32,271 nucleotides of DNA from a virus (Duplodnaviria; Heunggongvirae; Uroviricota; Caudoviricetes): IMG/VR virus record IMGVR_UViG_2711768166_000002; one strand, written 5' to 3'. Position numbers and translations under genes: made by a program. A model generated the notes under the pieces. It was given only the letters and a program-made list of their open reading frames with translations, was not told the origin of the DNA and did not search any database. Positions 1,059-2,025 of this stretch are shown piece after piece; the first letter of the stretch is position 1; every line of letters begins with the position of its first letter.

Positions 1059-1075
1059 TGGTGGGTTCCATTTAT
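1044..1075. terminator. Bidirectional hairpin terminator between convergent mnt and lipoprotein genes
   Basis: 8-bp stem aacccacc/ggtgggtt with loop tgat, A-run on one side and T-rich tract on the other. Confidence 0.55.
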
Positions 1076-1506
1076 TAGTCGTGCTTTGTGGACGGTATAA
1101 GGGATGCATTTGCCTCTTTAGGCTTCAAGGTATACATCCCACCATTAAATGGATCTACAGCAAGCCAACCAATTAACCCACCAAACACAAGGTTTCCACC
1201 AATATACCAACCATTAGCATTGGCTTTGATTGGCAGGGTAACTGGTTCGTACCCATCCTTCTCCATAGTGATCTGGTAGCTCTTTTTGCCAAAATAACTA
1301 CCATCTGACTTGGCAAGAGTTACTCCTTGCGGGGTCTTACCTTGCGCAACAATCACGCCTGATTCGTCTTTTACCTTAAAGCTCGCACCGGAAGGATTGC
1401 TGTTCACTTGCACAAGTTGCGTTTCATCACCAACAATAGTTGCGCACCCAGATAACATGATAGCGCCAGCAACGACGCTAATAATCCTCTTCATATCAAT
1501 TTCCAT
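1075..1506 (-). CDS. Putative lipoprotein (signal peptide with lipobox LSGC; glycine-rich hydrophobic C-terminal segment); start may be the internal Met at 1494
   Basis: ORF track translation MEIDMKRIISVVAGAIMLSGCATIVG...; lipobox read directly. Function unknown. Sits where P22 carries sieA. Confidence 0.65.
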   Translation of the reverse strand: MEIDMKRIISVVAGAIMLSGCATIVGDETQLVQVNSNPSGASFKVKDESGVIVAQGKTPQGVTLAKSDGSYFGKKSYQITMEKDGYEPVTLPIKANANGWYIGGNLVFGGLIGWLAVDPFNGGMYTLKPKEANASLIPSTKHD

Positions 1507-1611
1507 ATTTAAAAAACCGGAAACATCCTAATGACAAAACATTCAAATGTGAAGTAGGCAAAAGATGTTTACTTTTTTCATGGTATCCTGCTCAAAACTA
1601 AGGAGGTTGGT

Positions 1612-2001
1612 GTGAAGAAAGTTCTTGCTGCTATGTTCTTATTCATATCTTTTGGGGCTACAGCAGAGTGCTGGGTCGTTGGCGATATGCACGGAATAAG
1701 CTATTCAGAACGAAATAATTTTCAACCGGAAGAAGATGGTTTTAGTGGAACATTCATCATTAAGACAAACGGTGAAGATGCCAGTATCACATATTCTGGG
1801 ACGGATGCGGGCGGCATGGCTTACAAAGCATTGTCTAAAAACTCCATCATTGGAATCGGCGCGAATGGCGAAACTCAACGAGTTATCGACTCATGGGTAA
1901 TACATCCTAATGGAACAGTTTTAATGTCGAAAACCATTTCTGGTTATGGGAATATGGATTCAACCAAAGCTTTTGTTGGAAAAGTAAAAAGAAAATGTTA
2001 A
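1612..2001 (+). CDS. Putative secreted protein with N-terminal signal peptide, 129 aa, function unknown
   Basis: GTG start with AGGAGG RBS at 1601..1606. N-terminus MKKVLAAMFLFISFGATA is signal-peptide-like. Confidence 0.6.
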   Translation: MKKVLAAMFLFISFGATAECWVVGDMHGISYSERNNFQPEEDGFSGTFIIKTNGEDASITYSGTDAGGMAYKALSKNSIIGIGANGETQRVIDSWVIHPNGTVLMSKTISGYGNMDSTKAFVGKVKRKC

Positions 2002-2025
2002 CGATTGAATCCCATTCCCCATACG

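Follow-up and report, generated by a model that had tools for sequence, protein, structure and literature searches.

What do two divergent genes for exported proteins contribute to a prophage in the region where phage P22 carries sieA? The question is raised by positions 1059-2025 of IMG/VR virus record IMGVR_UViG_2711768166_000002, a sequence of the Caudoviricetes of 32,271 nucleotides (hereafter, the window). This stretch, which is 100% identical to a P22-like prophage of Escherichia coli strain E1, encodes a small lipoprotein on the minus strand and a 129-residue protein with a signal peptide on the plus strand. An earlier note on this DNA had suggested that the two proteins form a two-component exclusion system, or else a virulence-type moron. 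Both open reading frames (ORFs) are present as it described, divergent and flanked by mnt and a gp16-like ejection gene, and both products are indeed targeted to the envelope, their genes lying in a part of a P22-like prophage that is known to vary ('ant moron'/sieA region). We read the locus, with moderate confidence, as two independent morons of a P22-like (Lederbergvirus) E. coli prophage, both inserted in the hypervariable 'ant moron' that separates the ejection genes from the tailspike gene. One encodes an envelope lipoprotein and the other a swappable cargo protein of the Hex family.

The lipoprotein gene (1075-1494, minus strand) most likely encodes 139 residues. The 143-aa form given in the earlier note (1075-1506, minus strand), which opens MEIDMKRIISVVAGAIMLSGC, is possible from an upstream ATG at 1506, but the second ATG, at 1494, leads to a normal K/R n-region and is the start chosen both by the NCBI Prokaryotic Genome Annotation Pipeline (PGAP) and in PHROG 6823. 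The gap between the two genes, reported as 105 bp, has this length when measured from the upstream ATG and becomes 117 bp with the likelier start; it forms a conserved divergent leader (1495-1611). The gene of the 129-aa protein (1612-2001, plus strand) starts with a GTG located 5 nt past the Shine-Dalgarno (SD) sequence AAGGAGG (1600-1606). PGAP and RefSeq start this gene at an internal ATG at 1633 (122 aa), a choice that passes over the GTG with its perfect SD and strips the charged n-region from the signal peptide; many database copies of the protein are likewise truncated (106-107-aa entries). The PHROG matches (E-values of 4e-86 to PHROG 6823 for the lipoprotein and 2.3e-61 to PHROG 2651 for the 129-aa protein), the homolog clusters in databases (715 and 115, respectively) and the ratios of nonsynonymous to synonymous substitution (dN/dS, 0.03-0.06 and 0.18) establish that both ORFs are genuine genes and not chance ORFs.

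Independent distribution of the two genes and exchange of the cargo

A 2008 paper on phage epsilon34 called the gene 16-tailspike interval a fast-changing "ant moron" and listed epsilon34 genes 14 and 15 as unknowns. We found that gene 15 is a 98.6%-identical ortholog of the lipoprotein gene. Counts over complete E. coli genomes are 124 for the lipoprotein gene, 147 for the 129-aa gene and 45 for the two side by side. The pair does recur, yet each gene is also found alone in unrelated phage contexts. The lipoprotein gene has a different neighbour in epsilon34, Gally and 720R6, and the Hex-like gene occurs without the lipoprotein gene in Emek, ST-35 and E. coli 631.

To characterize the neighbours of the lipoprotein gene, we took a census of 75 IMG/VR P22-like contigs whose lipoprotein is at least 96% identical to that of the window. 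The gene lies beside mnt in all 75, while its divergent neighbour varies. The Hex-like 129-aa protein is encoded there in 20 contigs, a 171-aa lipoprotein with an LAGC lipobox in 17, a 107-aa hkcB-like protein in 12, a 109-aa protein with a transmembrane (TM) segment and a coiled coil in 11, a 74-aa protein in 8, a 62-aa protein with two TM segments in 4, a 75-aa protein in 2 and a 70-aa protein in 1. The other cargos, too, are for the most part exported or membrane proteins. Five unrelated ones (129, 109, 107, 75 and 62 aa) begin at the same GTG behind an identical leader of about 115 nt, the 3' end of which reads ...TGGTATCCTGCTCAAAACTAAGGAGGTTGGT in these contigs (also given as AAGGAGGTTGGT) immediately before the GTG. 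The homology break-points agree, the match to epsilon34 ending at 1614 and that to Emek starting at 1581. The same leader and GTG standing before varied ORFs show that the lipoprotein gene and the leader constitute a constant module and that the 129-aa ORF is one interchangeable cargo. Cassette exchange takes place exactly at the start codon, beside the constant lipoprotein gene. This phage moron thus documents cleanly how cargo can be swapped while the presumed promoter, the ribosome-binding site and the start codon stay fixed.

A Hex-family protein in the position of sieA

Sequence comparison shows that the 129-aa protein is homologous over its full length to Hex of phage 434 and to Sf6 gp38 (PHROG 2651). 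A tblastn search of phage genomes gave full-length matches of about 29% identity to an ORF located just past cI in 434, lambda imm434, Sf6 (gene 38), HK446, HK633 and Sf101. Pairwise BLASTP with 434 Hex aligned 129/134 aa at 29% identity (E 2e-15), and a profile search from the 129-aa protein retrieved the Hex cluster P0144 (622 members) at 1e-52, with intermediates of 25 to 91% identity. The 434 records annotate the hex ORF as "repressor protection protein"; its translation reads MIRIAALLSILLTTSANS up to the predicted cleavage site and continues ECWIV...FVGDVVGTCNQ. The two proteins share their length, a signal peptide, the ECW start of the mature protein and a C-terminal Cys. As they are only 29% identical, the target specificity of the 129-aa protein may differ from that of 434 Hex.

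The signal peptide announced in the earlier note is predicted at residues 1-18 (1612-1665), with cleavage between ATA and ECW, leaving a mature product of 111 aa. Recognisable Sec signal peptides extend across the 68 family sequences that we aligned, and a strict cleavage-site-plus-CW pattern occurs in 53 of them. Cys20 and Trp21 are invariant and Cys129 is at least 90% conserved; exactly two Cys are present in 53/68 members, and the last Cys lies no more than 2 residues from the C-terminus in 59/68. In the AlphaFold2 model (mean predicted local distance difference test, pLDDT, 90.8), the protein adopts an 8-stranded up-and-down barrel with the Cys on its first and last strands. We infer from this model a disulfide between Cys20 and Cys129; the prediction for the mature protein is a soluble β-barrel in the periplasm. 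Pfam and NCBIfam searches returned nothing for it, save Lipocalin_4 at E 0.003 in 3 of the 68 relatives.

The earlier note had placed both genes in the sieA slot. Comparison with the P22 map shows that this holds for the 129-aa gene, which has the exact place and orientation of P22 sieA, and does not hold for the lipoprotein gene. In the P22 record, 22 bp separate the end of sieA from the stop of gene 16; sieA is convergent on gene 16 and co-oriented with mnt, and has its own promoter. The 129-aa gene is likewise convergent on the 3' end of the gp16-like gene, across a gap of 24 bp, its promoter being a candidate only. SieA stops DNA delivery by P22-like phages, and escape mutations lie in gp16 and gp20. 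SieA is an integral inner-membrane protein, unlike the predicted soluble periplasmic barrel. Neither protein of the locus resembles it, BLASTP with SieA (P22/HS1) giving E-values of 1.7 and 0.044 with no meaningful alignment. SieA identity was rejected on this absence of sequence likeness and because the 129-aa protein has no hydrophobic segment past its signal peptide.

Hex-family genes are associated with repressor genes. Among 80 IMG/VR loci, the gene lies directly downstream of a 434-type cI and co-oriented with it in 56, meets a cI of another type at its 3' end, the two genes being convergent, in 21, and is located elsewhere in 3. Within the subfamily of the window, one member (53% identical) overlaps the stop codon of mnt (ATGA), which places it in the mnt operon. 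In E. coli 631 this operon comprises mnt, a gene for a periplasmic protein of the Rap1a/Tai family (type VI secretion system (T6SS) amidase immunity-like) and the Hex-like gene, whose start is truncated by PGAP. In Emek, the Hex-like gene stands alone beside gp16. The link to the lysogeny repressor implies expression in the lysogen, so that the 129-aa protein, like 434 Hex, is presumably made in lysogens. The two genes differ in that hex lies directly past cI in the PRM transcript, whereas the 129-aa gene is located in the ant moron, between the gp16-like and lipoprotein genes, and needs its own promoter. The cI of this prophage (25753-26403) is 52% identical to 434 cI and is followed, after a gap of 314 bp, by an Arg-rich N-like ORF (26718-27017). 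No hex-type gene is found downstream of cI in the window, the sole Hex-family gene being that of the sieA slot, about 24 kb away.

The lipoprotein family and its expression in a lysogen

The lipobox LSGC noticed previously is confirmed (L14-S15-G16-C17 in the 139-aa form); together with the signal peptide it spans residues 1-17 and is followed by Ala at position +2. A lipobox is present in 55 of 57 relatives, 54 of which have Ala at +2. Since this residue leads to outer-membrane sorting under the E. coli rule, the predicted fate of the protein is lipidation at Cys17 followed by transfer to the outer membrane. A transthyretin/PEGA-like β-sandwich is predicted at residues ~25-93 and 121-131 (nt ~1216-1422). 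It is interrupted by an invariant glycine-zipper segment, NGWYIGGNxVFGGLIGWLxVDPFNGGMYTL (residues 94-120, nt 1135-1215), modelled as a hairpin at low confidence. Neither protein of the locus belongs to a Pfam family, and a sequence search of the PDB gave nothing useful. SlyB/PCP-type outer-membrane lipoproteins also combine a lipid anchor, a GxxxG-rich hydrophobic hairpin and a small β domain. This likeness is only a lead: their domain order is reversed, and the lipoprotein has no sequence or Pfam match to Gly-zipper families.

A full HMMER search retrieved 5,658 clusters (at 50% identity) of lipoprotein homologs at E ≤ 1e-3. Identities above 50% are reached by homologs in Pantoea, Photorhabdus, Pasteurellaceae, Chromohalobacter, Nitrosomonas, Gallionellaceae, Syntrophaceae and Mariprofundus. 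A genome scan showed that the chromosomal ones sit amid housekeeping genes, e.g. tRNA synthetases, pepN and accC; no characterised member was found among the homologs. Relatives of 55-80% identity occur as morons among the tail genes of unrelated siphophage prophages. A 68%-identical homolog is inserted, in HK97-like E. coli prophages, between the tail chaperone gpT and the tape measure, i.e. in the HK97 gp15 slot; in Proteus prophages a homolog precedes the tape measure, and in Pseudescherichia it lies between gpI and gpJ. On these sequence grounds the phage carries a copy of a proteobacterial lipoprotein that is very widespread and strongly conserved, and that phages have captured repeatedly as a moron. 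HK97 gp15 itself, an unrelated inner-membrane protein, is like these homologs an autonomous moron inside the late operon, and their common slot indicates only that morons are tolerated at that site.

The earlier note had cited Cor and Llp as envelope factors of this type. Like Cor (phi80/N15) and Llp (T5), it is a small phage-encoded lipoprotein predicted in the outer membrane. The resemblance to Cor is confined to the signal peptide and remains below cut-off: the Cor models NCBIfam NF047972 and PHROG 1119 gave 13.2 bits (cut-off 31) over residues 5-33 and E 7.7e-4 over residues 5-24, respectively. The lipoprotein differs from Cor and Llp by its transthyretin/PEGA-like sandwich with a glycine zipper, and by belonging to a family that is chiefly chromosomal and whose conservation far exceeds that of receptor-specific blockers. 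Such a family, whose members share more than 50% identity between proteobacterial classes, speaks against a receptor mask specific to phages.

The HK97-like E. coli prophages with a lipoprotein homolog also carry an OmpC-like porin gene between gpM and gpL. In Lonepinella a gene for a small outer-membrane β-barrel protein lies directly upstream of the homolog, and in Chromohalobacter a porin gene adjoins it. A distant relative consists of the lipoprotein module fused to an OmpA-like transmembrane β-barrel. This fusion and the neighbours in Lonepinella and Chromohalobacter are weak hints of a functional tie between the family and outer-membrane β-barrel proteins.

Expression could be followed in prophage Gally of the adherent-invasive E. 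coli (AIEC) strain LF82, through published RNA-seq values expressed as log2(fpkm+5), where fpkm denotes fragments per kilobase per million. GALLYPH_14, the lipoprotein ortholog (97.8% identical), reached 6.2 / 4.8 in stationary phase in lysogeny broth (LB), 9.8-10.5 in Dulbecco's modified Eagle's medium (DMEM), and 11.0 and 9.4-9.5 after 1 h and 6 h in macrophages. The divergent cargo GALLYPH_13 gave about 6, 7.9-8.2, 10.3 and 8.5-8.7 in the same conditions, and the adjacent gp16 gene, GALLYPH_12, stayed at 3.6-4.1 throughout. The lipoprotein ortholog is therefore transcribed in lysogens independently of the late operon. The suggestion of a virulence-type moron thus fits the lipoprotein gene, whose ortholog is induced in DMEM and macrophages with the late genes silent, and Gally offers a ready genetic model for this protein.

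The leader carries signals that could account for such autonomous transcription. A promoter scan indicated a sigma70-like site on the minus strand for the lipoprotein gene (-35 TTCACA at 1553-1548, 17-nt spacer, -10 TAGGAT at 1530-1525), which is kept as TTCACG/TAAGAT in the otherwise divergent Gally-type leader. On the plus strand, the sequence TGGTATCCT at 1581-1589, read by eye, precedes the SD. Since mnt is separated from the 129-aa gene by an opposed gene and a terminator, the 129-aa gene must use a promoter in the leader. No inverted repeats or operators were found in the leader, and an Rfam scan of the whole window gave no match, which indicates that there is no sar-like RNA here. The lipoprotein gene is closed on the minus strand by a strong intrinsic terminator at 1042-1069 (hairpin 1048-1067), detected as a match in the plus-strand scan and by RNA folding. 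Its stem CCCACC/GGTGGG, extended by additional A-U pairs, carries a 4-nt loop and is followed by a U6 run on the minus strand; the minus-strand fold has a free energy of -15.4 kcal/mol (z = -3.2). In epsilon34, this hairpin carries the annotation of a rho-independent terminator. As the mnt stop codon lies inside the hairpin loop, the terminator probably ends the mnt transcript too. With its promoter-like site and terminator, its variable presence among P22-like phages and an ortholog transcribed while late genes are silent, the lipoprotein gene has the anatomy of a textbook moron.

Proposed roles, rival explanations and flanking features

In the model that we propose, the constant module would comprise the lipoprotein gene, with its own promoter-like site and intrinsic terminator, and the 117-nt leader. 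The lipoprotein would face the periplasm from the outer membrane through its transthyretin/PEGA-like sandwich, from which the glycine-zipper hairpin would protrude, probably to dip into the membrane or mediate oligomerisation. It would alter an envelope property of the lysogen, as a fitness or lysogenic conversion trait, phage exclusion being a possible but secondary effect. The other side of the leader would provide a promoter, SD and GTG to an exchangeable cargo ORF, here of the Hex family. The Hex-like protein would be exported by Sec, cut between ATA and ECW, and fold as a small disulfide-closed periplasmic barrel; made in the lysogen, it would exclude heterologous P22-like phages. Its homology to 434 Hex, the linkage of its family to a repressor gene (cI or mnt) and its location at the position of P22 sieA lead us to infer such expression and exclusion. 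The likely step would follow adsorption, through binding of the periplasm-exposed ejection-protein conduit, the needle or a virion murein hydrolase.

The exclusion role that the earlier note had suggested for both proteins is credible for the 129-aa protein as a Hex homolog, within the limits of the second-hand account on which the Hex phenotype rests, and weak for the lipoprotein. The Hex-like protein may exclude P22-like phages, an assignment that we make tentatively and rank somewhat short of probable. For the lipoprotein, the chances of a general envelope or fitness role appear evenly balanced; this role is favoured by the very strong conservation of the family, its chromosomal relatives and the induction in host conditions. 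A phage-specific block by the lipoprotein seems rather unlikely.

Several points weigh against this model. As far as the account in PMC3564112 goes, the P22-exclusion phenotype is reported for 434 hex only, and at second hand, and the sole biochemical study of Hex describes a cytoplasmic role, in which the protein blocks RecA-stimulated repressor cleavage (PMC3564112). Fold searches found generic barrels and sandwiches only, a BFVD fold search gave no significant match, and at E ≤ 1 neither protein matched a PADLOC model. The scan of 80 Hex-family loci relied on a peptide pattern that excludes the window's own subfamily, which was sampled separately. In LB, GALLYPH_14 is below the 5-fold moron threshold of the authors of the RNA-seq study, who left it off their moron list because it is only ~3-fold above background there. 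The Gally leader is only ~70% similar to the present one, so that the expression data transfer imperfectly. The promoter scan found 2 sites against 3.6 expected from shuffled sequences and is weak on its own, and TGGTATCCT is a plausible, weak candidate for the extended -10 of the 129-aa gene.

We considered three other explanations. That the lipoprotein and its periplasmic partner constitute one two-component superinfection-exclusion or receptor-masking system, as the earlier note proposed, is suggested by their divergence from a common conserved control region, the envelope targeting of both products and the recurrence of the pair (45 complete E. coli genomes; 20 of 75 viral contigs). It is not borne out by the way the genes are distributed, which largely refutes it: about two thirds of the carriers of each gene are without the other, and at least five unrelated cargos stand in for the 129-aa gene behind the same leader. 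Moreover, the Hex family is elsewhere tied to cI or mnt with no lipoprotein nearby, and members of the lipoprotein family stand by themselves in the tail clusters of siphophages and in chromosomal loci. We thus regard a joint system as highly improbable. A second explanation is that both genes serve host fitness or virulence without any anti-phage role, through envelope robustness, antimicrobial resistance or immunity to periplasm-acting toxins. The 6-40-fold induction in macrophages of the Gally lipoprotein ortholog, its neighbour cargo and mnt, all strongly induced in DMEM as well, argues for it, as do the chromosomal, highly conserved nature of the lipoprotein family across Proteobacteria (with its dN/dS of 0.03-0.06), the T6SS immunity-type gene that the Hex-like gene follows in the mnt operon of E. 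coli 631, and the host, an avian E. coli strain in which the prophage adjoins vat. It is opposed by the presence of the Hex-like gene at the position of sieA and by HK97 gp15, a proven exclusion gene that occupies the same tail-cluster slot as the lipoprotein homologs. Deletion of mnt (of mnt only, not of the lipoprotein gene) had no effect on macrophage survival, and phage exclusion is the phenotype reported for hex in the second-hand account of PMC3564112. We consider an exclusively host-directed function of both genes unlikely, though it deserves consideration.

The third explanation is that the 129-aa protein acts as published for 434 Hex, by protecting the repressor. The reported phenotype is that P22 is excluded by Salmonella lysogenic for imm434 but not by hex- lysogens, whence the name "heterologous exclusion" (PMC3564112, at second hand from Susskind & Botstein 1980); PMC3564112 itself argues that the repressor is shielded from RecA by Hex. 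The fragment termed 'sHex' (6 kDa) inhibits cleavage of the 434 and P22 repressors in vitro, deletion of hex raises spontaneous induction 30-fold in recA+ cells (PMC3564112), and the cI of this prophage resembles 434 cI (52% identity). However, the Hex of Shkilnyj et al. has 158 aa (PMC3564112), which corresponds to the 434 hex frame (L004:2429-2905) with a 24-codon upstream extension. The sHex fragment starts at Glu43 in this numbering (PMC3564112), and Glu43, after the 24-codon extension and an 18-aa signal peptide, falls precisely at the predicted signal-peptidase site between ANS and ECW. The fragment was a refolded 61-residue half-barrel without signal peptide, and overexpressed full-length Hex is toxic (PMC3564112). 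Both the start of sHex and the toxicity of the full-length protein fit a secreted protein; PMC3564112 does not discuss secretion. In addition, the hex- allele contains a promoter-bearing cat cassette in place of the 3' part of the cI transcript, so that a cis effect is possible. The Sec signal peptides and the paired, terminally placed Cys found across the family also speak against this explanation, as does the location of the present gene in the slot of sieA, ~24 kb from cI. Repressor protection by the 129-aa protein therefore appears quite improbable.

A wider conjecture, which we hold to be doubtful, is that all Hex-family proteins, 434 Hex included, are secreted periplasmic barrels that exclude P22-like phages by intercepting the DNA-delivery apparatus. 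Repressor protection would then be a by-product of a signal-less half-barrel, and the leader would be a fixed platform for swapped envelope-acting cargos. If so, the Hex family would constitute a soluble counterpart of the inner-membrane SieA, working in the manner of T4 Spackle.

Both genes are already in the databases, as epsilon34 gene 15 and as the Emek annotation "similar to Sf6 gene 38", and the region is a known moron hot spot. Our literature search on the lipoprotein (PEGA, prophage) and on further hex work found nothing beyond PMC3564112 and PMC2629481. Three points appear to be new: the membership of the sieA-slot gene in the Hex family, the disagreement between the export signals of this family and the published mechanism, and the lipoprotein leader as an unchanging expression platform behind which cargo is exchanged from the start codon on. 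Besides sieA, the P22-like "sieA slot" would hold another, unrelated candidate for exclusion, which homology links to hex, a nearly forgotten function of 434. The inconsistency between signal peptide and cytoplasmic mechanism in the Hex literature could be resolved by simple localisation and plating experiments. The lipoprotein brings to light a very large conserved proteobacterial family that is repeatedly captured by temperate phages and switched on in host-like conditions.

The flanking genes are those of a P22-like prophage. The gp16-like DNA-ejection gene (2026-3867, minus strand; 613 aa) is the last of the ejection block (PHROG 770, 2e-279; 'P22-gp16 family phage DNA ejection protein' in PGAP), beyond which lies a gp20-like gene (3864-5279, minus strand). 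On the other side, mnt (807-1058, plus strand), a marker of the immI/'ant moron' region, encodes an Arc/Mnt-family maintenance repressor of 83 aa (Pfam Arc 2.8e-22, Repressor_Mnt 2.2e-18; PGAP of the identical E1 locus). The E1-type prophage carrying this locus lacks arc and ant. Past its tailspike gene, the E1 prophage flank contains a short acyltransferase ORF and only an N-terminal integrase fragment, beside the vat autotransporter toxin gene; excision of the E1-type prophage may perhaps be impossible. Between mnt and the tailspike start (661-806), we observed AGACCACTGTGGTCT (palindrome 729-743), which is similar to the half-sites of the P22 Mnt operator despite the absence of arc and ant. 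A Pant-like promoter directed at the tailspike gene could here be under the control of Mnt; in the Gally prophage, growth in macrophages induces mnt together with the tailspike gene.

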